From NCBI GenBank assembly GCA_046714475.1, contig JBKKAU010000228.1:1-48119 (forward strand): a stretch of DNA of 48,119 nucleotides. The letters run 5' to 3'. Below, piece by piece: positions 4,560-45,782 of this stretch (positions are counted from its first letter, which is position 1; every line of letters begins with the position of its first letter). The translations under genes and the position numbers were made by a program. The stretch is from Thermoanaerobaculia bacterium. Lineage in GTDB: Bacteria; Acidobacteriota; Thermoanaerobaculia; Multivoradales; UBA5704. The notes beneath the pieces were generated by a model. It saw nothing but the letters and a program-made list of their open reading frames with translations. It ran no database searches and was not told the origin of the DNA.

Positions 4560-4594
4560 GATAAGCTTGTCGTGTCTCCTGAGGGAATGTCGTC

Positions 4595-6685: not shown

Positions 6686-8031
6686 CGGAACCCCAGAATG
6701 GAACTTCGACGCAACGGCCGATCCGCCCGCGCGACCGTGACGCGATCCTCCAGTCGCTGCGCGCCGGCGTGGTGCCGCGCCGCGGACATCAGTACATCCA
6801 GGTCGGCCGGTCGGACGAGGTGCGGGCGTTGCTCCAGGACCTCGACCGCATCGCCGACGGCGGCTCGGCGATCCGCTTCGTCATCGGCGAATACGGCTCC
6901 GGCAAGACGTTTTTCCTCTTCCTGATCCGCGCGATCGCCCTGGAGAAGGGGCTGGTCACCGCCCACGCCGACTTGAACCCCGACCGGCGCCTGCACGCCA
7001 CCGCCGGCCAGGCCCGTTCGCTCTACGCCGAGCTGATGGCCAACCTCGCGACCCGGACCAGGCCGGACGGCGGCGCCGTGGCCAGCGTCGTCGAGCGCTT
7101 CGTCACCTCCGCTCTGCAGACAGCCCGGGACGAAGGCATTGCCGTCGGCGCCGTTCTCCAGGACCGGCTGGCGAGGTTGTCGGACATGGCCGGGGGGTAC
7201 GACTTCGCCGAGGTGGTCGCCGCCTACTGGCGGGGGCACGACGAGGGGGACGACCGGCTCAAGTCCGACGCCGTCCGCTGGCTGCGCGGCGAGTACTCCA
7301 CCCGCACCGACGCCCGCAAGGCGCTCGGCGTCCGCACCATCATCGACGACGACAACCTCTACGATCAGCTCAAGCTCTTCGCGCGCTTCGTGCGGCTCGC
7401 GGGCTACGGCGGCCTGCTGCTCTGCCTCGACGAGCTGGTGAACCTCTACAAGCTCGCCAACACGCAGGCGCGCAGCAGCAACTACGAGCAGATCCTGCGC
7501 ATCCTGAACGACAGCCTCCAAGGGGCGAGCGTCGGGCTCGGCTTCGTGATGGGCGGCACCCCCGAGTTCCTGCTGGATACCCGCCGCGGGCTCTACAGCT
7601 ACGAGGCGTTGCGGTCCCGTCTCTCCCAGAACCGCTTCGCGGCCGACGGCCGGCGGGACCTCACCGGCCCGGTGCTCTCGCTCGCCAACTTGAGCCCCGA
7701 GGAAATGTACGTGCTGCTCCGCAACCTGCGCCACGTTCACGCCTCCGGCGAGCCCGCGCAGTACCTGCTCCCCGACGAGGCGCTCGTCGCCTTCATGGAG
7801 CACTGCTCGCAACGCCTCGGCGAGGCCTACTTCCGCACCCCGCGCAGCACCACCCGCGCCTTCCTGGAGCTGCTCGCCGTCCTCGAGCAGAACCCGGACG
7901 CCGGCTGGCGCGAGCTGCTCGGCGCCGTCGAGGTGGCGCCGGAATCCAACCCCGACCTCGAGCCGCTGCCGGAGGGCGGCGCGGCGTCCGCTCCCGTGGG
8001 AGACGACGAGCTGGCGTCGTTCAAGCTGTAG
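6682..8031 (+). CDS. sngB: P-loop ATPase of the DUF2791/BrxD-like type (Shango SngB-type)
   Basis: The ATG at 6682 overlaps the sngA stop (6683-6685). 449 aa. It starts MTEPQNGTSTQRPIRPRDRDAILQSLRAGVVPRRGHQYIQVGR, has Walker A GEYGSGKTF and Walker B-like LLLCLDELVNL. The listed 5548..8031 ORF is an upstream read-through of the same frame. Confidence 0.8.
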   Translation: MTEPQNGTSTQRPIRPRDRDAILQSLRAGVVPRRGHQYIQVGRSDEVRALLQDLDRIADGGSAIRFVIGEYGSGKTFFLFLIRAIALEKGLVTAHADLNPDRRLHATAGQARSLYAELMANLATRTRPDGGAVASVVERFVTSALQTARDEGIAVGAVLQDRLARLSDMAGGYDFAEVVAAYWRGHDEGDDRLKSDAVRWLRGEYSTRTDARKALGVRTIIDDDNLYDQLKLFARFVRLAGYGGLLLCLDELVNLYKLANTQARSSNYEQILRILNDSLQGASVGLGFVMGGTPEFLLDTRRGLYSYEALRSRLSQNRFAADGRRDLTGPVLSLANLSPEEMYVLLRNLRHVHASGEPAQYLLPDEALVAFMEHCSQRLGEAYFRTPRSTTRAFLELLAVLEQNPDAGWRELLGAVEVAPESNPDLEPLPEGGAASAPVGDDELASFKL

Positions 8032-8034
8032 GCG

Positions 8035-10278
8035 ATGGCGGCGACCTCGTCGGCCTTCCACCTCCTGCACCCAAAGGTCCGGAAGTGGCTCTGGGATCAA
8101 GGGTGGGATGAGCTGCGAGGCTTTCAGGAGGAGGCGATCCCCGCCGTGCTGGAGGGACAGGGCGACCTCGTGATCGCCGCTTCCACCGCCGCAGGCAAGA
8201 CGGAAGCGGCCTTCCTCCCCATCCTCACGGCCCTCGCCGACGATTTCGGGGGGAGCGTCCGCACCCTGTACGTCAGTCCACTCAAGGCGCTGATCAACGA
8301 TCAGTTCGACCGGCTCGAGCGGCTCTGCGAAGAGCTGGAGGTGCCGGTCGCCCGCTGGCACGGGGACGTCGCCGCCTCCCGGAAGCGGAAGGTGCTCGAC
8401 CATCCCGAGGGGATTCTGATCATCACGCCGGAGTCGCTGGAGGCCCTGTTCGTCCGCCAGGGGCCGAAGGTCCGTCCGCTGTTCGAGCGGCTCGCCTTTG
8501 TCGTCGTCGACGAGTTGCACGCCTTCCTCGGCACCGAGCGCGGCCGGCAGCTCCAGTCGCTGCTCCATCGGGTCGAGCTGGCGGTCCGCCGCCGCGTCCC
8601 CCGCATCGCGCTCTCGGCGACGCTCGGCGACCTGTCGCTCGCCTGCGAGTTCTTGCGCCCCGGAGGAGGGGAGGCGGTGCGGCGCATCGTCTCGGCGGCG
8701 AGCGGGCAGGAGCTCAAGGTCCAGGTGCGCGGCTACCGGGTCGTTCCTCCCCGGCTCTCCGCCGCGCAGGCGGAGGCGATGGAAGCCGCGGGCCAGCCGC
8801 CTTCCCTGGAAGACCTGGTCGAAGGCGACGCCCTGGAGATCAGTCTCCACCTCTTCGACAAGCTGCGCGGCGGCCATCACTTGATCTTCGCCAACTCGCG
8901 CGCCAACGTGGAGCTGTTCGCGGACCTGCTGCGCCGGCACTGCGAGACCCGGGGCATCCCGAACGAGTTCTGGGCGCATCACGGCAGCCTCTCCCGCGAG
9001 CTGCGCGAGGAGGCGGAGGCGGCGATCAAGGACCGGGCGCGGCCGGCGAGCGCGGTCTGCACCACGACCCTTGAGTTGGGCATCGACGTCGGCGCGATCG
9101 AGAGCGTGGCCCAGGTCGGCCCGCCGCCGTCGGTCGCCAGCCTGCGCCAGCGCCTCGGGCGGTCCGGCCGCCAGGGCGGGGCCGCGGTCCTGCGCGCCTA
9201 CGTCCGGGAGCCGGAGATCGGCAAGGACGTGGCGCCGCAGTGGAGCCTGCGCTCTGACCTCGTCCAGACGGTCGCGGCGGTCCAGCTCCTCGTCGCCGGC
9301 TGGTGCGAGCCGCCGGAGCCGGCGGCGCTCCATCTCTCGACGCTGGTCCAGCAGCTCCTGTCGGCGATCGCGCAGCATGGGAGCCTCCGCGCCGACCAGG
9401 CCTGGCGGGCCCTATGCCGCGACGGCGCCTTCCCGGGCGTCGACCAGGCGCTTTTCGCGGAGCTGCTGCGGAGCCTCGGCGGTCGCGAGCTGGTCCGGCA
9501 GGTGCACTCGGGCGAGCTGGTACTGGAGCTCACGGGGGAGCGGATCGTCAACCACCACGAGTTCTACGCCGCCTTCGCGACCTCGGACGAGTTCCGGCTG
9601 ACCAGCGGCGGCCGCACCCTGGGCACGCTGCCGATCTCCTATCCGCTGTTCCCCGGGCTCTGCATCGTCTTCGCGGGCCGCCGCTGGGAGGTGGTGTCCG
9701 TGGACGTGGAGCACAAGGTCGTGGACCTCAAGCCGGCCTTCGGCGCGCGTCTGCCCGGCTTCGAGGGGACGCGGGGAGCGGCGGTTCACGACCGGGTACG
9801 GCGGGAGATGCTCGCGGTCTACCGCTCCGCGTCCATGCCCGCCTTCCTGGACGCCCGGGCGCGCGACCTCCTCGCAGAAGGGCGCGGCCACTTCGCCCGT
9901 CTCGGGCTGGGAGAGCACCGCGTCCTCGGCGACGGCTCGGACACTCTCCTCTTCTGCTGGCGCGGCGACCGGGTGCTCGACACCCTGTCGGTCTGGCTCA
10001 ACGAGCGAGGTTTCAAGGTGGCGCAGGAGGGGGTGGCGCTGGTCCTGGACGGCGCCGATCCCGTGGAGGTCCGCCGCGAGCTGACCCGTCTCGCCGGCCA
10101 GGAACCTCCCGATCCCCTGGACCTCGCGGCCTCGGTCGTCAACAAGAGGACGGAGAAGTTCCACCCCTACCTGACCGACGAGCTCCTCGCCACCGACTGG
10201 GCGAGCAGCCGGATCGACGTGCGCGGGGCCTGGGAAACGATGCGGGAAGTCGCGGGCTCGGGCAGATCGGGAACATAG
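8035..10278 (+). CDS. sngC: SF2 DEAD/DExH-box helicase, Lhr/BrxHI-like (Shango SngC-type)
   Basis: 747 aa. Motif I AASTAAGKTEAAFLP, motif Ib LYVSPLKALINDQ, motif II VVVDELHAF, helicase C motifs (TTTLELGIDVG, QRLGRSGR) and a long Lhr-like C-terminal extension. Starts 3 nt after the sngB stop. Confidence 0.85.
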   Translation: MAATSSAFHLLHPKVRKWLWDQGWDELRGFQEEAIPAVLEGQGDLVIAASTAAGKTEAAFLPILTALADDFGGSVRTLYVSPLKALINDQFDRLERLCEELEVPVARWHGDVAASRKRKVLDHPEGILIITPESLEALFVRQGPKVRPLFERLAFVVVDELHAFLGTERGRQLQSLLHRVELAVRRRVPRIALSATLGDLSLACEFLRPGGGEAVRRIVSAASGQELKVQVRGYRVVPPRLSAAQAEAMEAAGQPPSLEDLVEGDALEISLHLFDKLRGGHHLIFANSRANVELFADLLRRHCETRGIPNEFWAHHGSLSRELREEAEAAIKDRARPASAVCTTTLELGIDVGAIESVAQVGPPPSVASLRQRLGRSGRQGGAAVLRAYVREPEIGKDVAPQWSLRSDLVQTVAAVQLLVAGWCEPPEPAALHLSTLVQQLLSAIAQHGSLRADQAWRALCRDGAFPGVDQALFAELLRSLGGRELVRQVHSGELVLELTGERIVNHHEFYAAFATSDEFRLTSGGRTLGTLPISYPLFPGLCIVFAGRRWEVVSVDVEHKVVDLKPAFGARLPGFEGTRGAAVHDRVRREMLAVYRSASMPAFLDARARDLLAEGRGHFARLGLGEHRVLGDGSDTLLFCWRGDRVLDTLSVWLNERGFKVAQEGVALVLDGADPVEVRRELTRLAGQEPPDPLDLAASVVNKRTEKFHPYLTDELLATDWASSRIDVRGAWETMREVAGSGRSGT

Positions 10279-20290: not shown

Positions 20291-20766
20291 GCCAGGACAG
20301 GGCGCTGCGCGACCATCTCCTCTATCTATTAAGAGGGGGAGGCGCCCACGCGTCCTTCGACCAGGTGATTGCAAACCTGCCGGCCGAGCTGCGGGGCGTC
20401 CGTCCTCCCGGGGCCTCGCACTCCCCCTGGGAAGTTCTGGAGCACCTCCGCATCACCCAGTGGGACATCCTGGAGTTCAGCCGCAACGGCGCCCACGTCT
20501 CGCCGGAGTGGCCGAAGGAGTACGGGCCCCGAGAGCTGGCGCCGCCTGACGCCGGCGCCTGGGACCGCAGCGTCGAGACCTTCCGGCGGGAGCTCAAGGA
20601 GATGGAAGCGTTGGTGGACGACCCGTCGTCCGACCTCTACGCCCAGTGCCCCTGGGGAGACGGTCAGACGCTCCTCCGCGAGGCGTTGCTGGTGGCGGAC
20701 CACAACGCCTACCACTTGGGGGAGCTGGTGCTGCTGCGGCGGCTGTTGGGAGCGTGGCCGTCCTAG
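20287..20766 (+). CDS. DinB-family (DinB_2-like) four-helix-bundle protein
   Basis: 159 aa. HSPWEVLEHLRITQWDILEF and ADHNAYHLGELVLLRR provide the His-triad layout of DinB proteins. The GTG start overlaps the ALDH stop (GTGA). Confidence 0.75.
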   Translation: MSQDRALRDHLLYLLRGGGAHASFDQVIANLPAELRGVRPPGASHSPWEVLEHLRITQWDILEFSRNGAHVSPEWPKEYGPRELAPPDAGAWDRSVETFRRELKEMEALVDDPSSDLYAQCPWGDGQTLLREALLVADHNAYHLGELVLLRRLLGAWPS

Positions 20767-20777
20767 CCTCCTGCCCA

Positions 20778-21260
20778 TCAGAATCCACAAGGTGGATAAG
20801 CGACAGACGAATAGGGAGAACAGGTGTTGTTGGGAAAAGTAACCTGCTTCCAACAACTTCCCGCGGTATTGTAGGAGGAGAGTACCACGGTAGTCTTGGT
20901 CCCGTCGCAGTTGGTGGTCTCGCGGTAATTCGTTACCTTGTACCGCACGTAGTACTCGTCGAACCTGTAACCGCGGCCTGCGTTGGCATACTCCTCAAGG
21001 CACTTGTACGGTTGGGTCAGCTGTTTGCTCAGCATTATCGATGTGCTGTAGTCGCGAGTGGACGGACAGCTTCTGCAGCGATGGATACAGGAATTATAGG
21101 CATCGACGCATTGCTGTTCGCAGAGAGCTCCGCCGAAAGCTCCACAATTGTCTGAACAGGTCCAGTAGTCAAGGCCGCACTGCTCCTCGCAAGCGGCATC
21201 AGCCCAGAGCGGACTGGAGGCCAGAAAAGCGAAAATAGCGACGACAACGTGCTTGCGCAT
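20778..21260 (-). CDS. Secreted Cys-rich protein of unknown function (low-G+C islet)
   Basis: 160 aa. Strong SD (gcaggaggaact-ATG) and signal peptide MRKHVVVAIFAFLASSPLWADA. There are 14 Cys in the mature part, including four Cx3C motifs (CEEQC, CSDNC, CEQQC, CIHRC). G+C is visibly lower than in neighbouring genes. Confidence 0.6.
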   Translation of the reverse strand: MRKHVVVAIFAFLASSPLWADAACEEQCGLDYWTCSDNCGAFGGALCEQQCVDAYNSCIHRCRSCPSTRDYSTSIMLSKQLTQPYKCLEEYANAGRGYRFDEYYVRYKVTNYRETTNCDGTKTTVVLSSYNTAGSCWKQVTFPNNTCSPYSSVAYPPCGF

Positions 21261-21427
21261 AGTTCCTCCTGCAGTGAGTTAACCGCCTGGGAAGCACAAC
21301 GGTATCGGAATCAAGTAGCTAAAGAATCTCCATGCACGCGTCCTTCGAGCGATACGGATTCAGTCCTTCAGTAGTTGAAGGTGCTGGAAGAGCCCAAAGC
21401 GGGACGGCACAGGATTCTCCAACTTGG

Positions 21428-22750
21428 CTAACCTTCCCCTCCAAACCGTATCCCCAGCTTCTTGAGAAGTCCAAACGGCGGCACGCCGCCGGCAAAGACG
21501 AAGACGTAATCGTTTTCCATCTCGACCGTCTCGCTCTCGCCGATCCGGAGCCTTACACTCACCGGTCCGATCTCCAGCGGCTGGGATGAGAAAAGCGGCC
21601 TGAGCCTGCCGCTCGCCAAGGCTTCCGCGAAAGCGGACTCATTTTTCTTCTTGATGCGGACCAGCTTCTCCCGCCGGTAGGAGAAGACGACCTCGTTGCC
21701 GGGCTGGCGGGTTAGGCCGACGGCGGCCTCGACGGCGCTGTCGCCGCCGCCCACGACCAGGATCTTCTGGCCGCGGTAGCCTTCGGCGTCCATCAGGCGG
21801 TACATGACCTTGGGGAGATCCTCCCCCGAGATGCCGAGCTTGCGCGGGCTGCCCCGCCGGCCGAGGGCGAGGACGATATGGCGGGCGCGCCAGGTGCCGC
21901 CTTGCGAGCGCACCAGGAAATGGCACTCCTCGCGCCGCACGTCCTCGACCGCTTCGCCGAAGCGCACGTTGAGCCGGTGGTCCCGCACCATGCCTTCGAA
22001 CATCCCCAGCAGGACCTCCTTGGCGTACTCCTCCTTGCGCAGCTCTCCCCAGGGCGGCAACTCGACCCGCTGCGTGAGGACCATTTTGCGGCGCGGGTAG
22101 TGGAGAAGGCTGCCGCCCAGGTTCTCTTCCTTTTCGAGGACGACGTGGGACAGCCCGGCGCCAGCCGCGGTCAGGGCGGCGCTCAGCCCTGACGGCCCGG
22201 CGCCGACGATCGCCACGTCGAGCACCCCATCCTCCGGCGGATCCTCGCGGCCCCTCTCGGCGACGTGCTCGATCACCTGACGGCCCTGGTGCACGGCGTT
22301 CTTGACCAGGGCGAGCCCGCCGAGCTCGCCGACGACGTAGATCCCCGGCACGCTGGTCTGGAACGATTCGTCGAGCAGGGGGACATCCTCGCGCGACTTC
22401 ATGTCTCCCAGGCCGACCGTGATGGCGCCGACCGGGCAGGCCTCCTCGCAACGGGCGTGCCCTACGCAGCGCAGCCCGTTGACCACGACCGCGGTGCCGC
22501 CGACGATGCCGAGTACGTCCCCTTCCGGGCAGGCGCGGACGCAGGCGCCGCAGCCGATGCAGCGCGCCGGATCGATGTAGGGATACTGGGCTGTGGGACG
22601 GTCGATCCCCAGGGCGGCCGCCTCCTCCTTGCGCTCGCGGTCGCCACGCACGCGGCGGCGGAACTTCCAGAGGTAGGGGAGGACGATCAGCGCCGCGACG
22701 ATCAGGGCGGCGCTCCAGAGCAGGACGGCTTCGGACGGCAGGGCGGTCAC
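21428..22750 (-). CDS. Membrane-anchored 4Fe-4S ferredoxin domain fused to a thioredoxin-reductase-fold FAD/NAD(P)H oxidoreductase (FNR-like)
   Basis: 440 aa.
- N-terminal TM helix, then KFRRRVRGDRERK (positive-inside).
- CIGCGACVRACP plus a degenerate CVGHARCEEACP.
- GxGxxG sites VAIVGAGPSGLSAA and ILVVGGGDSAVEAAVGL.
- No CxxC redox disulfide; only one other Cys. Confidence 0.8.
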   Translation of the reverse strand: MTALPSEAVLLWSAALIVAALIVLPYLWKFRRRVRGDRERKEEAAALGIDRPTAQYPYIDPARCIGCGACVRACPEGDVLGIVGGTAVVVNGLRCVGHARCEEACPVGAITVGLGDMKSREDVPLLDESFQTSVPGIYVVGELGGLALVKNAVHQGRQVIEHVAERGREDPPEDGVLDVAIVGAGPSGLSAALTAAGAGLSHVVLEKEENLGGSLLHYPRRKMVLTQRVELPPWGELRKEEYAKEVLLGMFEGMVRDHRLNVRFGEAVEDVRREECHFLVRSQGGTWRARHIVLALGRRGSPRKLGISGEDLPKVMYRLMDAEGYRGQKILVVGGGDSAVEAAVGLTRQPGNEVVFSYRREKLVRIKKKNESAFAEALASGRLRPLFSSQPLEIGPVSVRLRIGESETVEMENDYVFVFAGGVPPFGLLKKLGIRFGGEG

Positions 22751-22754
22751 TACT

Positions 22755-24383
22755 TCAGAAGCGGTACCCGAGGCCGAGGCTCAGGCGCTGTCCCTCCAGG
22801 TCGTCGCCGGTCGCGACCTCGACCTCGGCGCGGCCGAAGAGGTCGAGCGGCAGCTCCAGCCAGAGGGAGGCGCGGCCCCACTGAGTCGAGCGCTCCTCCT
22901 CGATCTCGCTCTCGCGATAGAGGGTGGTCCCCACGCTCAGGGTGAGGGCGTGGCCGGCCCCGAAGGTGCGGCCGGCCCGGGCGGTGACGAGGAGGCCGTC
23001 GGTCACGGGGTTGGTGAACCCCATGACGTCGGCCCCCAGGGAGAGGCCCAGAACGCCGGAGTGGCCGGCGCCCAAACCCAGAGAGAAGGCCCGGTCCGCG
23101 TCGAGCGCGGCGCTGCCGGTGCTCGCGCCCCCCTCTTCGCCGAGACGGGCGCCGGCGCTCACCGACCACTGAAAGCCCTGGGCCGGGGAACGCTGCCAGC
23201 TCACCCGCAGCCCCTGGCGGATGAAGTCCTCGAAGAGCTCGACCGGGATGAACCGGGTCTCCTCGGTCCAGTAGCGCTCGAAACGGTCGTAGGAGAGGAC
23301 CAGGCGGCCCTCGGCGGAGAGGCGCCCGATCGCCGTCAGCGCCACGGTCGAGAGCTGCGATCCCGAGCCGGCGGCCTGCTCGCGCCAGCCGCGGTTCAGG
23401 TCGAGCTCGGCGTGCTGGAAGAAGGACCAGCGCGAGCCCGCGTCATACCGGCTCTCCAGCGTCACGTACTCGCGGCTGATGTCGACGTCCCCCTCTTCGC
23501 GGATACCCGCGAGCAGCACCTCGAAGCGGTCGCGCGCCTCCTCGCTCGCCGGGCCGAACCGGGTGAAGACGCCGTACTTGCTCCCCGAATTCTCGAAGCC
23601 CAGCTCCTCGATGTCCGGGTTGAGACCGTAGAAGCCGCCGACCTCCACGCCGCGGACGATCCGCGTCTGGGCCAGGGCGCCGTCGAGATAGCCGATGCCG
23701 GCGAAGGGGCTGGTGCCGAGCCGGCCGAGGCGGAAGCCGGCGCGGCCCTCGGGCGGCTCGTAGATCAGGGCCAGCTCGTAGAGGCGGTCGCGGCTCTCGC
23801 GCTCCGGGATGCCGAACAGACGGCGGGTCCGCTGCTCGTCCGAGGTCCGGAGGCGCAGCCGCGCCTGGAGAGGAGTGCCGGCGATGCCGCGCGCCCTGAG
23901 ATTGAGGCGCACGGCCGTGCGCTGGAAGTCGCGGCCGGCCTCCGAACCGTCGGAGAAGCTTTCATGATCGACGCTGACCGTGCCCGCGAGGCCGGTGCGG
24001 GAGAGCCCGTACCCGCGGCTGGAGCTCTGGGGGAGCTGCGCCGGAGGTTGGGGCTCGGGCGCCGGAGCCGGCGGGCTTTGCTCGCTTCGCGGCTCGGGAG
24101 ACGTCTCGCCCAGCCGCCGCGCGCGGTCTCCCGCCTGGACCGTCTGCCGTTCGGAGACGATCCGGCAGGAGGCTGAATGCTCGGCCGCGAAGATCACCTC
24201 GACCTCGGCGATGACCGACCCGCCGCGCAGGACCTGGAGGCGGTCCCCCACGTCGACCCCCGCAGCCTTGCCCGCGTTCAGGTAGACCGTTTCGGCGGAG
24301 CGGTAGCGGACCTGGAGGTCGGTCTGGGCCGAAGCGACAACGGCGACCAGAAGGAGGATGAAAAAAAGGGTTTTCATTTTCAT
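22755..24383 (-). CDS. Outer-membrane beta-barrel protein (porin-like partner of the decahaem cytochrome)
   Basis: 542 aa. Signal peptide MKMKTLFFILLLVAVVASAQT, a small soluble domain, the Pro-rich linker SPPAPAPEPQPPAQLP, then about 400 aa of alternating-hydrophobic strands ending LSLGLGYRF (C-terminal aromatic OMP signature). ATGA overlap with the upstream cytochrome. Confidence 0.7.
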   Translation of the reverse strand: MKMKTLFFILLLVAVVASAQTDLQVRYRSAETVYLNAGKAAGVDVGDRLQVLRGGSVIAEVEVIFAAEHSASCRIVSERQTVQAGDRARRLGETSPEPRSEQSPPAPAPEPQPPAQLPQSSSRGYGLSRTGLAGTVSVDHESFSDGSEAGRDFQRTAVRLNLRARGIAGTPLQARLRLRTSDEQRTRRLFGIPERESRDRLYELALIYEPPEGRAGFRLGRLGTSPFAGIGYLDGALAQTRIVRGVEVGGFYGLNPDIEELGFENSGSKYGVFTRFGPASEEARDRFEVLLAGIREEGDVDISREYVTLESRYDAGSRWSFFQHAELDLNRGWREQAAGSGSQLSTVALTAIGRLSAEGRLVLSYDRFERYWTEETRFIPVELFEDFIRQGLRVSWQRSPAQGFQWSVSAGARLGEEGGASTGSAALDADRAFSLGLGAGHSGVLGLSLGADVMGFTNPVTDGLLVTARAGRTFGAGHALTLSVGTTLYRESEIEEERSTQWGRASLWLELPLDLFGRAEVEVATGDDLEGQRLSLGLGYRF

Positions 24384-25249
24384 TCTCTCCCCCTGGGATG
24401 GCAGTTGAGACAGGCCCTGCTCTCGTAGCGGTAGCCCCCGACCCGGCGGTGCTCGTCATCCATCTCCGAGCGGCGGTGGTCGTGACAGGTCAGGCAGGAG
24501 AAGGTCTGGAGGTTGCCGCTCGTGTGGCAATTCGAGCAGGAGGACCAGGTCCCTTCATGGACGCCGGAAAAGATCGGGAAGAACCGGCTGTCGTGGACGC
24601 GGAAGTCGGCGCCTGCGAAGCTCGACGTGCTGTGGCAGGCCTCGCACTGGGTGGGGAAGCCCAGCTGCACGTGGTTGGGCTGCGCCCGCCGGTAGTCCTC
24701 GGCGTGGCAGGAGAAGCAGTCGTTCGGGGTGCCCGCGAACTCGAACGGCGGCGCCTGCCGGTGACAGGCCCCGCAGTCGAGACGGGTGTGCGCGCCGGTC
24801 AGCGGGAAGAGCGAGGCGTTGTGCAGCTCGAAGATCCGCCGCCGGTTGTCCCAGCCCGCTGGAGTGTGGCAGCTCTCGCACGCCAGCCCCAGGGCCCGGC
24901 GGTGCGGGTCCTCGTGGCAGTCGGCGCAGGCGGTGCTGACATGGGTGAACCGGAGGTCCTGGTGGCAGCCGATGCAGGCGACCTGCTTGTGGCTCTTGAG
25001 GAGCGGGAAACCGGTCTCCTTGCCGTGGTCGAACGGCAGTGACTTCTTGAGCGGCCGCCAGCCCTCGGGGGTATGGCAATGACTGCAGCCCACTTTGAGC
25101 GGACCGTGGGGGTTGCGGCTCGCCTCCTGGGCCCGGTCCGGAGCGGACTGGAGCAGCAGGAGGAGGACGGCGAGGCAAAAAACCCTCGCTCCGAGGTCAG
25201 CGGATCGCGGCGAGACTCGCACCTTGTCTTCCTCCATGACACCCCTCAC
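24380..25249 (-). CDS. Periplasmic decahaem c-type cytochrome
   Basis: 289 aa with 10 CxxCH (CSHCH, CIGCH, CADCH, CESCH, CGACH, CFSCH, CEACH, CSNCH, CLTCH, CLNCH). Signal-like h-region VFCLAVLLLLLQSAP. The exact start is uncertain (ATG 25249 or 25237); either overlaps the end of the 23-haem gene. Confidence 0.85.
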   Translation of the reverse strand: MRGVMEEDKVRVSPRSADLGARVFCLAVLLLLLQSAPDRAQEASRNPHGPLKVGCSHCHTPEGWRPLKKSLPFDHGKETGFPLLKSHKQVACIGCHQDLRFTHVSTACADCHEDPHRRALGLACESCHTPAGWDNRRRIFELHNASLFPLTGAHTRLDCGACHRQAPPFEFAGTPNDCFSCHAEDYRRAQPNHVQLGFPTQCEACHSTSSFAGADFRVHDSRFFPIFSGVHEGTWSSCSNCHTSGNLQTFSCLTCHDHRRSEMDDEHRRVGGYRYESRACLNCHPRGRE

Positions 25250-27053
25250 AGGTCGTAGGCAGCGGCTTGTAGCGGACGATGGTCCGGCCTTCGCGGGTCT
25301 CCGGCTTATGGCAGGCGGCGCACGGCAGGCGGCGGTGCGCCCCTTCGAGCCGGAAGCGCGAGCTGCGGTCGTGATCGAACGTCGCCCGTTTCCATCCGAG
25401 AACGGAATGGCAGGCCTGACACCGGACTCCTCCCGCCGCCTTCTGTCCGGCCGGGACGAGCTGTCCCCCGTGAGGATCGCCGTGGCAGGAGGCGCACTCG
25501 GTGGGCGTCCCCTGGAAGCGGATCCGCTCGCGGGGCGTACCGCGCTCCACCGTTGGATGGCAGCTCCGGCAGGCGACGCGCTGATGCCCCCCTTCGAGGG
25601 GGAATCCCGTCCGGTCGTGGTCGAAGATCACGTTTTTCCAGCTCTCCAGCGAGTGGCAGGTCTCGCATCCCCCCTGGACGACAAAACGCTTCACCTCGCC
25701 CCGATGGGGATCGCCATGACAGGTGAGACAGGCGGTGGAGGTGAAATGGAACTGGATCGTCTTCGACGGGCCCCGCGGGCGGTGGCAACTGATGCAGGGC
25801 ACCGCGAGATGGGAGCCCTGCAACGGGAACGAGGTCTTCTGGTGCTTCTCCAGGGTGAAGGTCGATGGTTTGAAGCCCTCGACCGTGTGACAGCTCGCGC
25901 AAGGCTGACCTTTGAGCTGGCCGAGATGGACGTCCTTGTGGCAGTCGGCGCACTGCTGGAACCGGGCGATGCGGGTGGTGGTCTGCCCAGCGCCGTGGCA
26001 GCTCTGGCAGGGGACCTGGCGGTGCTCGCCGCGCAGCGGGAACCGCGTCTTGTCATGGTTGAAGCTGGATCGCGCCGCCCCCGTCTTCCAGGCGGCGGTG
26101 GTATGGCAGGACTGGCAGGTCGCCCCGAACCGCCCCTGGTGCGGGTCTTTATGGCAGTCAGTGCAGCGCTGGTGGGCCATCTTGGTGAAGGTGGGGCCGC
26201 GATGACAGCTCGCGCAGGGGAGGGAGCGGTGCCGCCCGGTCAGGGGGAAGCCGGTGCGGTCGTGGTTGAAGCTCGAACGGTCGACCGATTTCCAGCCCTC
26301 CGTCGAGTGGCACTGCTGGCAGTTGGCGCCGAACCGCCCCTGGTGGGGGTCGCGGTGGCAGCTCGCGCAGGCTGCATGCTGGATCCCTTTGAGCTGCAGA
26401 AAGGAGCCGGCGGCGTCCGTTTTCGCTGGATGGCAGGAGGCGCAGGCCACGGACGCGTGCTGTCCCGTGAGCGGGAACTTGGTTTGGCCGTGGTCGAATC
26501 CCCGCGCCGGCTTCCAGGCCTTCTGATCGTGGCAGGAGACGCAGCTGGTGGAGAGCTGCCCCCGGTGTTCGTCCTTGTGGCAGGAGAGGCAGGCGGTACC
26601 GAGCCCGAGGAAGGTGCGGGACGGATTGGCGTTCTGGAGCTCGCGTGGGTTGCGGATCAATTTCGGCTGGTGGCAGGCGCGGCAGGTGAGCGCCGCGTGG
26701 GCGCCGGCCAGGGTGAAGCCGGTCTGCCGGTGGTCAAAGCCGGCCGAGCCCTGCTTGCCCCAGTGGATCAGTTGGAAGTCGCGCCCGTGGTGCTCGTTGT
26801 GGCAGGTCTTGCACTGCCGGTATTCGGGTCGGGCATGAAGCCCCTTCCCGGCGGCGATCCGCTTCTGGAGCGGGGTGTGGCAGGAGAGGCAGCGCTCGGG
26901 CGTGGCGCCCTTTCCGGGCTGATGGCATTTGAGGCAGTTGGCGCTCCCTTCGAGCCGCACGTGGGCGCGGCTGAGCGGGCCGGGGGAGAGCTGCGCGCCG
27001 GCGGGGACCTCCCCGAGGAGGATCGCGGCGAGGAGCAGCCCGGCTTGTCTCAT
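25197..27053 (-). CDS. Periplasmic 23-haem c-type cytochrome built from repeated paired-CxxCH modules
   Basis: Start at MRQAGLLLAAILLGEVPAGAQ (27053), a signal peptide. I count 23 CxxCH in 618 aa. The listed ORF extension to 27632 is Arg/Pro-rich and lacks a signal peptide. ATGA overlap with the upstream membrane-protein gene (27050-27053). Confidence 0.85.
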   Translation of the reverse strand: MRQAGLLLAAILLGEVPAGAQLSPGPLSRAHVRLEGSANCLKCHQPGKGATPERCLSCHTPLQKRIAAGKGLHARPEYRQCKTCHNEHHGRDFQLIHWGKQGSAGFDHRQTGFTLAGAHAALTCRACHQPKLIRNPRELQNANPSRTFLGLGTACLSCHKDEHRGQLSTSCVSCHDQKAWKPARGFDHGQTKFPLTGQHASVACASCHPAKTDAAGSFLQLKGIQHAACASCHRDPHQGRFGANCQQCHSTEGWKSVDRSSFNHDRTGFPLTGRHRSLPCASCHRGPTFTKMAHQRCTDCHKDPHQGRFGATCQSCHTTAAWKTGAARSSFNHDKTRFPLRGEHRQVPCQSCHGAGQTTTRIARFQQCADCHKDVHLGQLKGQPCASCHTVEGFKPSTFTLEKHQKTSFPLQGSHLAVPCISCHRPRGPSKTIQFHFTSTACLTCHGDPHRGEVKRFVVQGGCETCHSLESWKNVIFDHDRTGFPLEGGHQRVACRSCHPTVERGTPRERIRFQGTPTECASCHGDPHGGQLVPAGQKAAGGVRCQACHSVLGWKRATFDHDRSSRFRLEGAHRRLPCAACHKPETREGRTIVRYKPLPTTCEGCHGGRQGASLAAIR

Positions 27054-27898
27054 CCAGAGCCCCAGGCATAACCCGTGAGGATCGCCACGGCGACGTGGAC
27101 GATCATGAAAAGGTACATCACCACCGCGAACGGTTTGTGGAACACGTGCCAGTAGTGGAAGACCTGCTGCAGCCGGTCCCAGAGCAGCAGCCGGCGCCGG
27201 AGCACGGCCCTCTGGCGCGCCGTCCGGGCGAGCTCGCGGCCGAAGCCGCGGCGGAAGGCGCGGAGGCGCCAGCGCAGGCGTAGCCCTTCGACTGGAAGGC
27301 GGCAGAGCAGCGCGAGGAGGCCGATGTCCGGCGAGAGACCGCCCTCGGCGACCGCGTCCAGCTCGCGGAGGGTCTCTTCGGAGACCCCGAGCTCCTCGCG
27401 CAGCCGGCGGCCCGTCTCGCGGCTCAGCTCCTCGGCCTCGGCGAGGCTCAACTGGTCGCCGGACCGCGCGCGGGGGATCTGTAGATAGAGGTAGCGGCCG
27501 AGAACCCCGGAGAGGGCGACCGCGATCATCGACCAGAAGCTCAGCGCCACCAGCCCCTGCACCTTGAACGAGCTGTGGAGGATCACGAGCAGTGGGCCGA
27601 TGATGCCGCAGAAGATGTGGAAGTCGAGCCACGAGCGGAGCTTGCCCAGGCGTCGCAGCGGCTTCGCCCGCTTGCGGACCGAGTAGAGGAGCATGAGGAC
27701 CATGAGCGACGCTCCGATCACGCCGAAGGCGTGCCCATACGAGCCGCCCGGCTTGAGTTCCCAGAAATCCTCGTGATGCGGCCGCTCGACCAGCGGCGTC
27801 CCGTAATACGACCGTCCCTCCAGGGCGAAATGGAGGATCGCCGCGAGCGCGGCGGCGTAGAGCAGGCAGAGGACGGTCTTGCGGATGGCGCCATCCAT
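27050..27898 (-). CDS. Polytopic inner-membrane protein with two H-x13-H helices (putative dihaem b-type cytochrome)
   Basis: Start at MDGAIRK (27898), 282 aa, about 5 TM segments. FHIFCGIIGPLLVILH (H94/H108) and FHKPFAVVMYLFMIVH (H254/H268) each space two His 14 residues apart. A long Arg-rich amphipathic insert sits between TM4 and TM5. Confidence 0.6.
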   Translation of the reverse strand: MDGAIRKTVLCLLYAAALAAILHFALEGRSYYGTPLVERPHHEDFWELKPGGSYGHAFGVIGASLMVLMLLYSVRKRAKPLRRLGKLRSWLDFHIFCGIIGPLLVILHSSFKVQGLVALSFWSMIAVALSGVLGRYLYLQIPRARSGDQLSLAEAEELSRETGRRLREELGVSEETLRELDAVAEGGLSPDIGLLALLCRLPVEGLRLRWRLRAFRRGFGRELARTARQRAVLRRRLLLWDRLQQVFHYWHVFHKPFAVVMYLFMIVHVAVAILTGYAWGSG

Positions 27899-27958
27899 AC
27901 AGGTCTTCGACAGCGCGGAGGGTGGCGCCGGAACAGGAGGTCTGATAGGAATGACGGC

Positions 27959-28765
27959 GTGGTTCGTACCGGAATCACTTTGGCCGTAGCGGCCGGGATC
28001 GCCCTCTTCGTGCTCGACAACTTCGCCCGTCAGGCCCTCTATCCCGCTCCGTCGGTGGCGGTCCCTTCGCCGCCGCCTTCCAGCCTGGAGGAGGTCCGGC
28101 TCGACCTGTCCACCGGCGAGAAGGCGGCGGGGTGGGCCCATGCCGGCTCCTCGCTGCCGCCGGAGGCCCCGGTCGTGGTGTTCTTCCACGGTAATGGCGA
28201 GAACCTGCAGACGATGGCCTGGGCGGGGCTCTACGAGGATCTCAACGGCCTGGGGATCGCCTTCCTCGCGGTCGACTATCCTGGCTACGGCCGCAGCTCG
28301 GGCTCACCTTCAGAGGAGGGGCTGATAGCCACCGGCGAGGCCGCCGTCGCCTGGGCGCGCCAGCGGCACCCGGACCGGCCGCTGGTCCTCTGCGGCTGGT
28401 CACTGGGCGCCGCGGTCGCGATCGCCACCGCCGCTCGCCATCCGCAGGAGGTCCGCGGGCTCATCGCCCTCTCCCCCTGGACCACCCTGGAGGAGGTCGC
28501 CCGGCTCATCTTCCCCGGCTTCCTGGTCAAGGCGATGCTGCGGGAGACCTACGACTCCCTCGCGATGGCGAAGCAGGTCCGTGTCCCCTCCCTGGTGATC
28601 CATGGCGAGCTCGACGACCTCATCCCCGCCTCCCAGGGAAAACAGATCGCCGAAGCGCTCGGCGGGCCGACCCGCTGGGTGGCGGTCCCCGGCACCGGTC
28701 ACAACGACCTGTTCGCGCAACGCCAGGTCTGGAAGGAGTTGGCCGAGTTCCTGAAGAGCTTTTGA
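27959..28765 (+). CDS. Alpha/beta hydrolase (serine hydrolase)
   Basis: VVVFFHGNGEN, nucleophile elbow GWSLGAA and a late GTGHND His. GTG 27959 is the first start in frame after the antisense overlap, and TTG 27977 is an alternative. N-terminal hydrophobic anchor ITLAVAAGIALFVL. Confidence 0.75.
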   Translation: MVRTGITLAVAAGIALFVLDNFARQALYPAPSVAVPSPPPSSLEEVRLDLSTGEKAAGWAHAGSSLPPEAPVVVFFHGNGENLQTMAWAGLYEDLNGLGIAFLAVDYPGYGRSSGSPSEEGLIATGEAAVAWARQRHPDRPLVLCGWSLGAAVAIATAARHPQEVRGLIALSPWTTLEEVARLIFPGFLVKAMLRETYDSLAMAKQVRVPSLVIHGELDDLIPASQGKQIAEALGGPTRWVAVPGTGHNDLFAQRQVWKELAEFLKSF

Positions 28766-28776
28766 ATCAGCCGACC

Positions 28777-29574
28777 TCAGCCAGGGCTCTGCTGCCAGAA
28801 GAGGATCGCCGTCACCAGCAGGCCGATCACGATCACCGCGGCCCGGGCCTTCTTCTGGCCGATGCGCCTGGCGAAGCGGGCGCCGCCGTAGCCCCCCGCG
28901 ATCGCGCCCACCGCCAGCACCAGGGCCGCCGGCCAGTCCACCGCCCCGCGGTAGATGAACCAGGCCGCCGCCACGCTGTTGATGCACAGGTTGAAGAAGA
29001 CCTTGAGGCCGTTCATGGCGTGGATGTTCGAGAGCCCGAGGAAGCCGAGCAGGGCGAGCATCAGGATGCCGATCCCCGCCCCGAAGTAGCCGCCGTAGAT
29101 CGCGACGAGGAATTGCAGCAGGGAGGCAGCGATAAGCCGGCCGCGGGAGAGCTGGGAGAGGTCGGGGACGCCGTCTGTTCCCGGATCTTTCCGGGCGGCG
29201 GAGCGGCGGGCGACGGCGCCCTGGAGCATGAAGAGCAAGGTCGCGAACAGGATGAGCTGCGGCGCGAGCCAGGCGAAGACTTTCTCTGGGGTGCGCAGAA
29301 GCAGGACCGAGCCGAGCGCTCCGCCCAGGAGGCTGGGCAGGAACAGGGTCTTGAGCCACCCCCGGTGGGCGGCGACCTCTTTCCGGTAGCCGGCCATGCC
29401 GGCGACCACCCCGGGCAGCAGCGCCACCGTCGAGGTCGCGTTGGCGGTAATGGCCGACTGGCCGAGGAAGAGAAGGGTGGGGAAGGTGAGGATCGTGCCG
29501 CCCCCGGCCATGGAGTTCATGATCCCCGCTCCCAGGGCGGAGGCGGCGAGTGCGAAAATTTCTGTGGGTGTCAT
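28777..29574 (-). CDS. TauE/SafE (TSUP) family anion exporter
   Basis: 265 aa from MTPTEIFALAASALGAGIMNSMAGGGTILTFPTLL. It has the duplicated 4-TM TSUP layout with GGYFGAGIGILML in the second half. Confidence 0.85.
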   Translation of the reverse strand: MTPTEIFALAASALGAGIMNSMAGGGTILTFPTLLFLGQSAITANATSTVALLPGVVAGMAGYRKEVAAHRGWLKTLFLPSLLGGALGSVLLLRTPEKVFAWLAPQLILFATLLFMLQGAVARRSAARKDPGTDGVPDLSQLSRGRLIAASLLQFLVAIYGGYFGAGIGILMLALLGFLGLSNIHAMNGLKVFFNLCINSVAAAWFIYRGAVDWPAALVLAVGAIAGGYGGARFARRIGQKKARAAVIVIGLLVTAILFWQQSPG

Positions 29575-29634
29575 GGCGTAGGGTCCATGGCGAGGGGCGA
29601 TTCTACAGGGTTGATATACTTCGCGCCCGCCTCC

Positions 29635-31881
29635 ATGAACCGCCGTAGCCCCCTCTTGCGCATCCGTCCCTGGCGGCATCTCCTGGCGCTCGCCGGCTGC
29701 GTCTTGATGGCCGCCTGCGAGAAGGACCCCCGGGACTACGAACCGTTCTACGACCTGATCGAGAAGCTTCCGTTGGCCGAGGTCCGGCGCGAGCCGGAGC
29801 TGGTCGACCTGGGCTCCCCGGCCGTCCGGCCCTCGCTGCGCGGCGGCTGGTCCTGGGACGAGACCGGGATGGACGGCAAGACGTTCGTCTGGAGCGACGG
29901 CGCGAAGTCGGCGCTGGACTTCTTCCTCACCGAGCCGCGTGACGTGACGGTCCTGTTCCGGGGAGCCCCGTACTTCTTCCTCGACGAGCCGGCGCAGGAG
30001 GTCACCTTCGTCGTCAACGGCGGCGAGGCGGGCACGGTGGCCATGAAGCGGGGATTCCACGAGTACTCGATCGTCCTGCCGGAACGGGTCCTGAAAGCCG
30101 GGGACAACCGGCTGGTCCTGCGCTACGGCTATACCCGCAGGCCGCGCGACGTATCGGCCGGCATGCACCCGGACACGCGGCGGCTCGGGGTCCACTGGGA
30201 CTGGCTCCGCTTCGGCACCGGCGTCGACCCGGAGTCCGACATCCGCGTGGCGGGCAACCAGCTCTTCATCCCTTACGGTGTACGGATCGACTTCCACACC
30301 CGCTTTCCGGCCGCGGGCGCGCTTACCTTCGAGCGGCTGCTGGACCGGGGGATCGGAGAGGGGAGGCTCCAGGTCGGCCTGCAACCCGAGGGGGAAGAGG
30401 GCGACATCCTGGACCCGATCCCGGAGCGGCAGGCGCCGGCGGCGATCGGTCTGCCGGTCGAGGCGGGGAGGGTGGTGCGCGTCTCGCTCGCCGCGGTCCC
30501 GGGAAAGCGGCCGGTCGGCTCGGCGAGCGGCGTTTTGTTGTCGCGGCCCGCCTTCGCCTCCCAGGGAGTTGCACCGTCCGCTTCTGGAAATGCGGCGGAG
30601 GCCGACGCGCGGAAGCCGGCGCGGCCGTTGAACGTCGTCCTCTATATGGTCGACACCTTGCGGGCCGACCACCTGGGCTGCTATGGGTATGACAGGCCCG
30701 TCTCGCCGCACCTCGACGCCTTTGCCCGCGAGGCGGTGCTGTTCGAGAACGCCATCGCCCAATCCCCCTGGACCCGGCCCTCGGTCGCCTCGATGCTCAC
30801 CGGGCTCTGGCCGAAGACCCACGGGGTCAACGGCCGCAACGACGCCCTCTCGCCCGAGGCGTTGACGCTCCCCGAGATGCTGGCAAGCCGCGGCTACCGC
30901 AGCGCGGGAGTCACCACCAACGGCAACGTCGCCAAGGCGTTCGGCTTCGCGCAGGGGTTCGACGTCTACGAGATGCCGGCCAAGCAGGACTCGGCCCACG
31001 TCAACGACCTGGCCCGCGCCTGGCTGGACGCCAACGCCGGCCATCCGTTCTTCCTTTACCTCCATACGGTCGATCCCCATTCGCCGTACAAGCCGTCGCC
31101 GGAGTACCGGCGGCGCTTCGCCGCTGGAGTCCCCCAGGACGGCACCGGCACGGGGAAGTGGCTGCGGCGCCTGCACGCGAGGAAGACGCCGGTCACGCCC
31201 GAGCTCCTGGAGCACCTGGGCGCCCTCTACGACGCCGAGATCGCCGGCAACGACGCGAGCTTCGGCGCCCTGATCGCGGACTTGAAGCGCCGCGGGTTGT
31301 GGGACGAGACCATCGTGATCTTCGTCTCCGATCACGGCGAGGAGTTTCATGACCATGGCGGTTGGGAACACGGCAAGACGCTGTATGCCGAGATGCTCCA
31401 CGTGCCGTTGCTGATCCGCGTTCCCGGGAGGGGAGGGGGACGGCGCGCGTCGTCCGTCGCGCAGCACATCGATCTGGTCCCTACCCTTCTTTCCACTCTG
31501 GGGCTCCCCCTGCCGGGGTATCTCGAAGGCCGCGATCTGCTGCCGCTTTTCCACGAGGACACGGCGGAGACGGCGGGGACGGAGGAGCGTCCGGTGTACT
31601 CCTACATGGACGTCGACGGTCACCGCGGCGCCTCCGCGGTCACGCTGGACCGGCACCTGATCGACGTACGCGGTCCGGCCCCCTCGACCCACCTCTATGA
31701 CCGAGAGCGCGACCCTAAGCAGCGCGACAACCGGGCGTCGAAGAACCCCGTCGGCTTCGGGTACCTGCGGGCGCTGCTCAAAGCCCGCGAGCTCGAAGAG
31801 AGGCGGACTCTGAAGCCGGGCGAGGGCGTCGTCGACGAGGCCCTGCGCGAGCAGCTCCGCGCGCTGGGTTACATCAACTAG
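29635..31881 (+). CDS. Lipoprotein with an N-terminal unknown domain and a C-terminal sulfatase-like (alkaline-phosphatase superfamily) domain
   Basis: MNRRSPLLRIRPWRHLLALAGCVLMAAC is a lipobox-type signal. The sulfatase-fold blocks are NVVLYMVDTLRADHLGCYGY, SPWTRPSVASMLTG and FVSDHGEEFHDHGGWEHGKT. Confidence 0.8.
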   Translation: MNRRSPLLRIRPWRHLLALAGCVLMAACEKDPRDYEPFYDLIEKLPLAEVRREPELVDLGSPAVRPSLRGGWSWDETGMDGKTFVWSDGAKSALDFFLTEPRDVTVLFRGAPYFFLDEPAQEVTFVVNGGEAGTVAMKRGFHEYSIVLPERVLKAGDNRLVLRYGYTRRPRDVSAGMHPDTRRLGVHWDWLRFGTGVDPESDIRVAGNQLFIPYGVRIDFHTRFPAAGALTFERLLDRGIGEGRLQVGLQPEGEEGDILDPIPERQAPAAIGLPVEAGRVVRVSLAAVPGKRPVGSASGVLLSRPAFASQGVAPSASGNAAEADARKPARPLNVVLYMVDTLRADHLGCYGYDRPVSPHLDAFAREAVLFENAIAQSPWTRPSVASMLTGLWPKTHGVNGRNDALSPEALTLPEMLASRGYRSAGVTTNGNVAKAFGFAQGFDVYEMPAKQDSAHVNDLARAWLDANAGHPFFLYLHTVDPHSPYKPSPEYRRRFAAGVPQDGTGTGKWLRRLHARKTPVTPELLEHLGALYDAEIAGNDASFGALIADLKRRGLWDETIVIFVSDHGEEFHDHGGWEHGKTLYAEMLHVPLLIRVPGRGGGRRASSVAQHIDLVPTLLSTLGLPLPGYLEGRDLLPLFHEDTAETAGTEERPVYSYMDVDGHRGASAVTLDRHLIDVRGPAPSTHLYDRERDPKQRDNRASKNPVGFGYLRALLKARELEERRTLKPGEGVVDEALREQLRALGYIN

Positions 31882-45296: not shown

Positions 45297-45332
45297 ACCG
45301 TTGCACGGCTTTTGCACGATGTCGGCACTGTC

Positions 45333-45770: not shown

Positions 45771-45782
45771 AGAGGACGAGCG

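Follow-up and report, generated by a model that had tools for sequence, protein, structure and literature searches.

The window analysed here, 48,119 nucleotides (nt) of contig JBKKAU010000228.1 from a Thermoanaerobaculia bacterium (Acidobacteriota), carries on its minus strand five tightly packed genes, termed g1 to g5 in 5′ to 3′ order, whose products we describe as a candidate system for extracellular electron transfer (EET). All five open reading frames (ORFs) lie where a preliminary description of the window had placed them. The first gene, g1 (27050..27898), encodes a predicted inner-membrane protein of 282 amino acids (aa) starting from the ATG at 27898; g2 (25197..27053) encodes a secreted cytochrome c of 618 aa with 23 CxxCH motifs, g3 (24380..25237) a second secreted cytochrome c of about 280 aa with 10 CxxCH motifs and an ambiguous start, g4 (22755..24383) an outer-membrane protein of 542 aa with the C-terminus GLGYRF, and g5 (21428..22750) a flavoprotein of 440 aa with a GTG start. 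The protein features named in that description, namely the pairs of H-x13-H motifs, the 23 and 10 CxxCH motifs, the barrel ending in GLGYRF and the iron–sulfur (Fe-S) flavoprotein, were all seen again.

According to the ORF list and a parse of the sequence, the stop codon of g1 and the start codon of g2 share an ATGA at 27050-27053, those of g3 and g4 share another at 24380-24383, with GGGGGAGAG immediately upstream, and g5 follows g4 after only 4 nt (22751-22754), all of which agrees with what had been described. The gene g2 ends at 25197, and g3 has candidate starts at 25249 (GTG), 25237 (ATG) and 25222 (GTG); the overlap of the two genes noted earlier is therefore real, but its size is 26-53 nt by choice of the g3 start rather than the 40-50 nt given before. 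On the 5′ side of g1, a divergent gap of ~50 nt separates the cluster from a plus-strand alpha/beta-hydrolase gene, and this intergenic stretch (27899 to approximately 27950) offers the only room for a promoter of a five-gene unit. A pattern scan of 20600-28800 found no sigma-70-type promoter consensus, and the promoter is therefore only inferred to lie in that gap; terminator-like sites in the same interval were no more frequent than in shuffled sequences. Judged solely by the gene overlaps, the five genes would be co-transcribed.

Predicted properties of the five proteins

The g1 protein carries the motifs W90-x3-H94-x13-H108 and W250-x3-H254-x13-H268, together with S130-G-x-x-G134 (SGVLG). 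Its AlphaFold model (pLDDT 87) has five transmembrane (TM) helices, with the two W-x3-H-x13-H motifs on TM3 (helix 87-112) and TM5 (helix 240-275), SGVLG on TM4 (helix 116-140), and an Arg/Glu-rich helical insert of ~95 aa between TM4 and TM5. In an alignment of 38 g1 homologues, H42, H94, H108, H254, H268 and the S-G-x-x-G motif were invariant. Positive-inside charge counts assign the loops 76-87 and 141-240 to the cytoplasm, and H94 and H254 are predicted to lie near the inner face of the membrane and H108 and H268 near its outer face. The protein is predicted to bind two b haems.

On its own, g1 matched no Pfam or NCBIfam family above threshold and gave weak matches to Ni_hydr_CYTB, DUF4405 and Ferric_reduct, the last at 20.3 bits against a cut-off of 28, which falls short of membership. 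Matches to these Pfam families, likewise below threshold, recurred among the 38 homologues (DUF4405 in 27/38, Ni_hydr_CYTB in 17/38 and Ferric_reduct in 11/38). Neither a Foldseek search of the PDB with the g1 model (best E = 1.2) nor a PDB sequence search with the profile of the 38 homologues returned a significant relative. The family is large, comprising 3953 clusters (50% identity) when E <= 1e-3 is allowed and 584 when the limit is tightened to E <= 1e-30. Two seeming fusion proteins of g1 relatives (P0491 and P0492) are partial on both sides; they were read as frameshift or assembly artefacts and were not used as evidence.

The larger cytochrome, g2, is built of about eight tandem three-haem c7-like units at 26.9 aa per haem, and eight stretches of it matched Pfam Cytochrome_C7 (E = 1.3e-28). 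Since it contains 51 His and only 2 Met, bis-His ligation of its haems is likely; its N-terminus resembles a signal peptide by eye, and the protein is predicted to act as a wire spanning the periplasm. The product of g3 is a 10-haem cytochrome of the c3/c7 type with a signal peptide and no clear lipobox, and is predicted to be the partner of the barrel g4. In relatives, the gene ahead of the barrel encodes from 10 to 58 CxxCH motifs.

Behind its signal peptide, g4 has a periplasmic beta domain at residues 23-90; a disordered linker rich in Pro (94-127) connects this domain to a barrel (131-541), which AlphaFold modelled with 22 strands (pLDDT 84). The pairing of cytochrome and porin suggested earlier depended on a barrel large enough to hold a cytochrome, and the modelled one is not too small, having the strand number predicted for the porin of the Leptothrix PCC3 conduit discussed below. 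Foldseek retrieved only generic barrels for g4 (PapC/FimD, AlgE and Occ, with TM-scores of 0.3-0.4), and MtrB was not among its top 50 matches; g4 had neither an MtrB_PioB match nor any Pfam family, the sole Pfam signal being a weak FlgT_C match in the N-terminal domain. PDB sequence searches with g2, g3 and a barrel profile gave no matches. Among the 120 g4 homologues listed, all those bearing names were from Thermoanaerobaculia.

In g5, a TM helix at the N-terminus is followed by a Fer4 domain for two clusters (Fer4_10, 5e-11) and a Pyr_redox_3/Pyr_redox_2 domain (Pyr_redox_3, 1.1e-39). The last shows the motifs of a two-Rossmann FAD/NAD(P)H domain (GAGPSG ... GGGDSA ... SYRRE), with the Arg-rich SYRR(E/D)K located after the second Rossmann strand. 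Because no twin-arginine motif precedes the hydrophobic segment and an Arg/Lys run follows it, the bulk of g5 is probably cytoplasmic. The second Fe-S motif reads C-x2-H-x2-C-x3-CP (residues 95-106; about 22433-22468, minus strand), with His98 in the place of the second Cys. This His is invariant in 120/120 g5 homologues and also occurs in Emticicia (see below), and a cluster ligated by it would suit the hand-over of electrons to a partner protein.

The solved structures nearest to the flavoprotein domain of g5 are YpdA/Bdr (7a7b, 1.2e-22), followed by thioredoxin reductases (TrxRs), and the TrxR-type ferredoxin-NADP reductases (FNRs) in the PDB match it at a slightly greater distance (2.6e-11 to 1.7e-8). 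Both of the nearer identities were rejected because the catalytic Cys is absent. As a YpdA/Bdr protein, g5 scored 150.5 bits versus 339.9 for TIGR04018, and the Cys of GGGPCG is replaced (GAGPSG or GAGPAG in 120/120 homologues); as a thioredoxin reductase, it scored 76.6 bits versus 343 for TIGR01292 and lacks the redox-active CxxC of the NADPH domain. Outside the Fe-S domain, no Cys is conserved among the 120 homologues. The ferredoxin domain fused in g5 fits the logic of a TrxR-type FNR.

Conservation, hosts and plasmid-borne relatives

Scanning one genome per species yielded 80 loci, and every one was in a metagenome-assembled genome (MAG). By their labels, the acidobacterial MAGs belong to Thermoanaerobaculia (including Ca. 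Multivoradales), Holophagales, Vicinamibacteria and others, and the rest to Polyangiaceae, "Deltaproteobacteria", Ignavibacteria, Calditrichaeota, Schekmanbacteria and WOR-3. The nearest named relatives are Thermoanaerobaculia MAGs, and a MAG of this class has the five genes in identical order. Synteny was counted by phmmer of g1-g5 against all ORFs of the 40 non-redundant loci that are flanked by 8.5 kb or more on each side. All five families occurred together in 35/40 of these loci, and the flavoprotein family was present in every one (40/40). The preliminary description had made its proposal hinge on synteny in related genomes, and the five genes are indeed kept together there, which supports their being one co-inherited unit.

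Two pairs remain adjacent in most loci despite rearrangement. One is the membrane protein and the g2 homologue straight after it, mostly with 20 or 23 haems, and the other is the variable cytochrome and the barrel. The variants include an acidobacterial MAG (L002) in which the five genes are divided between two divergent units, another (L034, 6275-20843) with two side-by-side copies of the cluster, a g1 homologue of 227 aa without the cytoplasmic helical insert (L091, 4287-4970) and a g1 homologue preceded by a 300-aa NAD_binding_1 protein (L090, 2230-4021). In the search outward from flavoprotein homologues, the membrane protein was near in two of three long contigs and not in the third.

None of the further window genes was conserved with the cluster among the related loci. 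The neighbours there are lineage-specific: 17 loci have a TPR protein, and a thioredoxin-like gene and a 227-aa gene occur in 5 loci each. The TPR protein, which is membrane-anchored and adjoins the cluster (e.g. L002, 3847-4527), does not occur in the window. A sulfatase gene stands beside the cluster in the window (28762-31881, plus strand) and in nine of the related loci, L002 (12793-15111) among them, and its conservation is weak. Genes for cytochrome c maturation were also found directly beside the cluster: a metagenome contig has ccmBCEFGHI there (L090, 11140-17464), and the Emticicia plasmid has a fused ccsA (L084, 5818-8904).

A tblastn search of plasmids with g1 revealed that pEMTOL02 of the cultured Emticicia oligotrophica DSM 17448 (Bacteroidota) carries the cluster, and a search with g2 had this plasmid as its sole match. 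The order of genes is ccsA, membrane protein, Fer4 + Pyr_redox_3 protein, 23-haem cytochrome, 40-haem cytochrome and a 538-aa protein. The membrane protein (281 aa) is 36% identical to g1 with identical motifs, the Fer4 + Pyr_redox_3 protein (440 aa) is 39% identical to g5 and keeps the His motif, the 23-haem cytochrome is 40% identical to g2, and the 538-aa protein has a weak likeness to g4 (E = 3e-9).

More distant g1 homologues, nearly full length and at E values from 1e-11 to 3e-19, are located on plasmids of Legionella, Methylophaga, Variovorax and Bradyrhizobium BTAi1 (L085, L086, L087 and L088). In these modules of three genes, the g1-like protein is encoded between a reductase of 610-690 aa and a 7-haem cytochrome, and the starts and stops of the genes abut in two loci and overlap in two. 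The reductase comprises FAD_binding_6, NAD_binding_1 and Fer2 domains in the two that were scanned, the others being annotated as 2Fe-2S proteins, and that of Bradyrhizobium is apparently truncated by an IS3 insertion. One membrane-protein superfamily has thus been joined by two unrelated flavin/Fe-S reductases, as would be expected if the cytoplasm feeds the membrane protein.

In Legionella and Variovorax the modules adjoin genes for a multicopper oxidase, a CpxP-type protein or heavy-metal sensor, and copper-binding proteins, which suggests that they may supply electrons to the periplasm for metal handling. The five-gene cluster could by analogy export electrons for a non-respiratory purpose, such as reductive detoxification, assimilatory Fe(III) reduction or redox defence of the envelope. 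Some of the g1 relatives on plasmids are annotated as 'iron reductase', E. oligotrophica, an aerobe, has its cluster on a plasmid beside ccsA, and an NAD(P)H-fed path without pumping would conserve no energy. However, the 33 haems of the two cytochromes (up to 78 in relatives) and a dedicated barrel would be a costly outfit for detoxification, and the outer cytochromes are variable and very long (up to 58 haems), which points to solid or distant acceptors; we consider a purely non-respiratory role improbable.

Proposed path of electrons and its alternatives

The reading that we prefer, with a probability of about 0.5, is that the five genes encode a single envelope-spanning conduit, in which a split exporter resembling NOX/FRE would be joined to a PCC3-like module and the quinone pool would not be required. 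NOX/FRE enzymes have a cytoplasmic FAD/NAD(P)H module, whose electrons cross the membrane over two b haems on H-x13-H helices; the E. coli system MsrQ-Fre has its flavin reductase as a protein of its own. In the proposed conduit, g5, anchored at the cytoplasmic face, would move electrons from NAD(P)H onto its FAD and from there to its two [4Fe-4S] clusters, of which the His-ligated one would be the likely exit. After contact of g5 with g1, the electrons would cross the inner membrane over two stacked bis-His b haems, with H94/H254 holding the inner and H108/H268 the outer one. The 23-haem g2 would bridge the periplasm, and the 10-haem g3, located in or on the 22-strand barrel of g4, would hand the electrons to an extracellular acceptor, for which Fe(III) or Mn(IV) minerals, humic or particulate organic matter and a partner cell are candidates.

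This reading starts from what was directly observed, i.e. the gene structure, the motifs, the predicted folds, the co-inheritance of the five families and the pairing of the superfamily with two kinds of reductase. The last of these gives the proposed quinone bypass its main, indirect support. NAD(P)H is suggested as the donor by both kinds of partner, as the FNR kind has an NAD-binding domain and the g5 kind has two Rossmann folds and the Arg-rich SYRRE. The role of g1 is suggested by its four invariant His in H-x13-H spacing, with one pair predicted near each membrane face, and by its recurrent weak likeness to dihaem cytochrome b families; the low number of residues per haem and the ample His of g2 are as in wire-like cytochromes.

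A quinone-linked conduit of the PCC3 type would share the outer part of this path and differ at the inner membrane. There, g1 would act as a quinol dehydrogenase or quinone reductase joining the menaquinone pool to g2, and g5 would stand off the direct line; it could be an NAD(P)H:quinone reductase feeding the pool (compare Ndh2 and EET in Listeria), or be involved in maturation or regulation. The motifs of g1 are those of the inner-membrane proteins of the predicted PCC3 and PCC4 conduits, for which a function as quinone-active cytochrome b has been proposed (He et al. 2017, PMC5566968), and Ni_hydr_CYTB, to which g1 has a weak likeness, is a quinone-reactive family. Moreover, PCC3 as published for Gallionellaceae has four genes and no flavoprotein, and the flavoprotein gene is at times distant from g1 in our loci. 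On the other hand, the flavoprotein accompanies the cluster without exception in the 40 well-flanked loci, the coupling of distant g1 relatives to an FNR-type cytoplasmic reductase is hard to explain with quinol feeding, and the His-ligated Fe-S cluster and membrane anchor of g5 would suit transfer from protein to protein. We regard the quinone-linked arrangement as a serious alternative, though a rather unlikely one.

Several points nevertheless weigh against the direct, quinone-independent conduit. Foldseek and the PDB profile search gave g1 no significant match to NOX, MsrQ, STEAP or any cytochrome b, and all its Pfam matches are under their cut-offs; the present data are compatible with a quinone site in g1, in line with the proposal of He et al. 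(PMC5566968). In L002, the flavoprotein gene lies within the barrel unit, apart from the membrane-protein gene, and L092 combines a 10-haem cytochrome, a barrel and a flavoprotein with no g1 homologue within 9 kb. PCC3, the nearest published counterpart, is itself a functionally unverified prediction. The proposed path would also pump no protons, and its benefit would therefore be redox balancing rather than energy conservation, or else the detoxification or assimilation considered above.

The direction of flow had been described as not readable from the sequence, which now appears to be less open than was claimed. If NAD(P)H is the partner of g5, outward flow would be strongly favoured on thermodynamic grounds, because the potential of NAD(P)H (-320 mV) is low enough for the reduction of Fe(III), Mn(IV) and quinone moieties. 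In the opposite case, electrons from Fe(II), a cathode, Fe(0) or a syntrophic partner would enter via g3/g4 and pass through g2 and g1 to g5, reducing NAD(P)+ or ferredoxin. Such inward flow seems very unlikely to us, since the potential of Fe(II) at neutral pH lies far too high for the reduction of NAD(P)+, the electrons would move against the membrane potential with no energy-coupling subunit encoded, the hosts are mainly labelled as heterotrophic lineages of Acidobacteriota, and the window has nrfHA and aldehyde dehydrogenase genes instead of genes for autotrophy. It finds some encouragement in the presence of PCC3 in Fe(II) oxidisers, where it is a suspected iron oxidase, in the up-regulation of the inner-membrane gene of one PCC3 copy in the iron-oxidising Sideroxydans CL21, and in the reversibility in principle of multihaem wires such as Mtr.

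To our knowledge, every characterised EET route of Gram-negative bacteria has the quinone pool at one of its ends (CymA, ImcH, CbcL, bc1/ACIII), and the inner-membrane end of PCC3-type conduits is still annotated as "hypothetical protein". If the link between g5 and g1 is direct, it would represent a new entry point for electrons into a wire to the cell surface. Organotrophs of the Acidobacteriota, the Bacteroidota and lineages represented only by MAGs could then discharge reductant onto minerals or organic matter, bypassing the respiratory chain, with consequences for their redox balancing and for the cycling of iron, manganese and organic matter by the abundant uncultured Acidobacteriota of soil, sediment and wastewater. 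As a general proposal, that of a widespread quinone-independent EET in which a membrane-anchored Fe-S flavoprotein oxidises NAD(P)H and passes the electrons directly to a dihaem-b protein, and this in turn to a 20-23-haem wire and a porin-cytochrome, this is tentative and falls somewhat short of even odds. The cluster on the plasmid of the cultured E. oligotrophica DSM 17448 makes the question accessible to bench testing.

The remainder of the window contains further redox genes. At 45297-47192 (plus strand), an NrfH-like tetrahaem gene of the NapC/NirT type (4 CxxCH) is followed by a gene for an NrfA-like cytochrome c552 with five CxxCH and no CxxCK. The organism hence possesses a quinol dehydrogenase of the NapC/NirT type, whose link is with nitrite reduction rather than with the conduit. 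The segment 12470-17698 (minus strand) encodes a protein of 1110 aa, in which 5 CxxCH and TPR repeats accompany a Cytochrome_C554-like region, and then a 631-aa FG-GAP/ASPIC-UnbV protein. A Cys-rich secreted ORF of 160 aa (20778-21260, minus strand) begins 167 nt downstream of g5 with a strong GGAGG ribosome-binding site; it lies in a stretch of lower G+C content, has no family match and was otherwise seen only in L089, a contig with an identical flavoprotein. Farther away (4583-10278, plus strand), a 700-aa TerB_N/TerB/TerB_C protein is encoded near a 748-aa DEAD/Helicase_C protein, a pairing that recalls conflict systems.

Comparison with known systems

The closest published counterpart of the cluster is PCC3, a predicted conduit comprising a porin, a variable "extracellular" cytochrome, a periplasmic cytochrome with a median of 21 haems at about 26 aa per haem, and an inner-membrane protein of ~300 aa (He et al. 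2017, PMC5566968). The inner-membrane proteins of PCC3 and PCC4 have five TM helices, with SGXXG on TM4 and WX3HX13H on TM3 and TM5, and were compared by these authors to the ferric-reductase domain (PMC5566968). In Gallionellaceae, PCC3 includes cytochromes of 21-27 and 10-35 haems (PMC9900912), and the PCC3 porin of Leptothrix was predicted to have 22 strands. Compared with the PCC3 descriptions, the window cluster matches this architecture in its gene content, motifs and haem numbers. Porin, two multihaem cytochromes and inner-membrane protein correspond to g4, g2 and g3, and g1, whose length of 282 aa, five TM helices and motifs are as described for PCC3. With 23 haems (20-23 in relatives), a repetitive build and 26.9 aa per haem, g2 is close to the 21-27 haems and ~26 aa per haem of its counterpart; the second cytochrome varies in haem number in both cases, from 10 to 58 here and from 10 to 35 or more there, and both barrels are predicted to have 22 strands. 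The clusters differ in gene order, in the fifth and always-linked gene for a membrane-anchored 2x[4Fe-4S] flavoprotein, and in their hosts, which for PCC3 were reported from Alpha-, Beta- and Gammaproteobacteria and here are Acidobacteriota, Bacteroidota and MAGs labelled Ignavibacteria, Calditrichaeota or Polyangiaceae. No Gallionellaceae or Leptothrix locus was among those returned by our scan of one genome per species.

Supplementary Table 6 of the same study lists clusters of a cytochrome, an HX13H protein and an "other redox protein" of 412-805 aa, in which the membrane proteins have no significant similarity to those of PCC3 and PCC4 (PMC5566968). Because g1 is homologous to the proteins of this type, its family may be a sister of the PCC3/PCC4 proteins. 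Like the five-gene cluster, the Table S6 clusters and the plasmid modules couple true g1 homologues closely with a cytoplasmic flavin/Fe-S reductase and a c3/c7-type cytochrome of the periplasm. They differ in having three genes, mostly no porin and a cytochrome of 7-10 haems, so that the path ends in the periplasm, and the plasmid modules further differ in their reductase, which is of the FNR type instead of the Fer4 + TrxR fold, and in their metal-resistance context.

The arrangement of a decahaem gene directly followed by a barrel gene (the g3/g4 ATGA), with the cytochrome expected inside the barrel, recalls MtrCAB, MtoAB and PioAB. The preliminary description had seen MtrAB/PioAB/MtoAB logic in the cluster; this stands for the arrangement of the genes and fails for homology to MtrA and MtrB, as g3 and g2 scored 28.6 and 50.3 bits against TIGR03508 (MtrA/DmsE family), with a cut-off of 192.2 bits, and g4 lacks an MtrB_PioB match. 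Membership of the Mtr/Pio/Mto systems was ruled out by these scores. The 22 strands of g4 also contrast with the 26 of the MtrB barrel, and the inner-membrane partner of Mtr is the quinol dehydrogenase CymA.

With NOX, FRE and MsrQ, the cluster shares the two H-x13-H pairs on two TM helices of g1, where haem binding is a prediction. It differs from them in the five instead of six TM helices of g1, the TrxR fold and Fe-S clusters of g5, and the 23-haem wire as acceptor. In the Tmc and Hmc complexes of sulfate reducers, a multihaem cytochrome in the periplasm, a cytochrome b in the membrane and an Fe-S protein in the cytoplasm are combined into a path that is independent of quinones, and in this the transmembrane path proposed here would resemble them. 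However, their cytoplasmic subunits are HdrD-like CCG proteins without flavin, their electrons flow inward to sulfite reduction and they have no outer-membrane module; the HmcA model scored only about 20 bits against a cut-off of 400.

In the literature searched on EET in Acidobacteriota, multihaem cytochromes of Thermoanaerobaculia, HX13H proteins, ferric-reductase-like exporters and Emticicia, no description of the five-gene arrangement was found, nor of a fixed partnership with an Fe-S flavoprotein or a bypass of the quinones. A 2026 preprint on EET clusters of Acidobacteriota from peat concerns other architectures, with cytochromes of 8-13 haems and no inner-membrane module. The earlier view that the arrangement is undescribed accordingly has to be narrowed, since PCC3, PCC4 and the Table S6 clusters had been published, and it holds for the constant flavoprotein partner. 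What was known already is a predicted conduit of the PCC3 kind; what is new is the invariable flavoprotein partner, the range of phyla and a cultured carrier.

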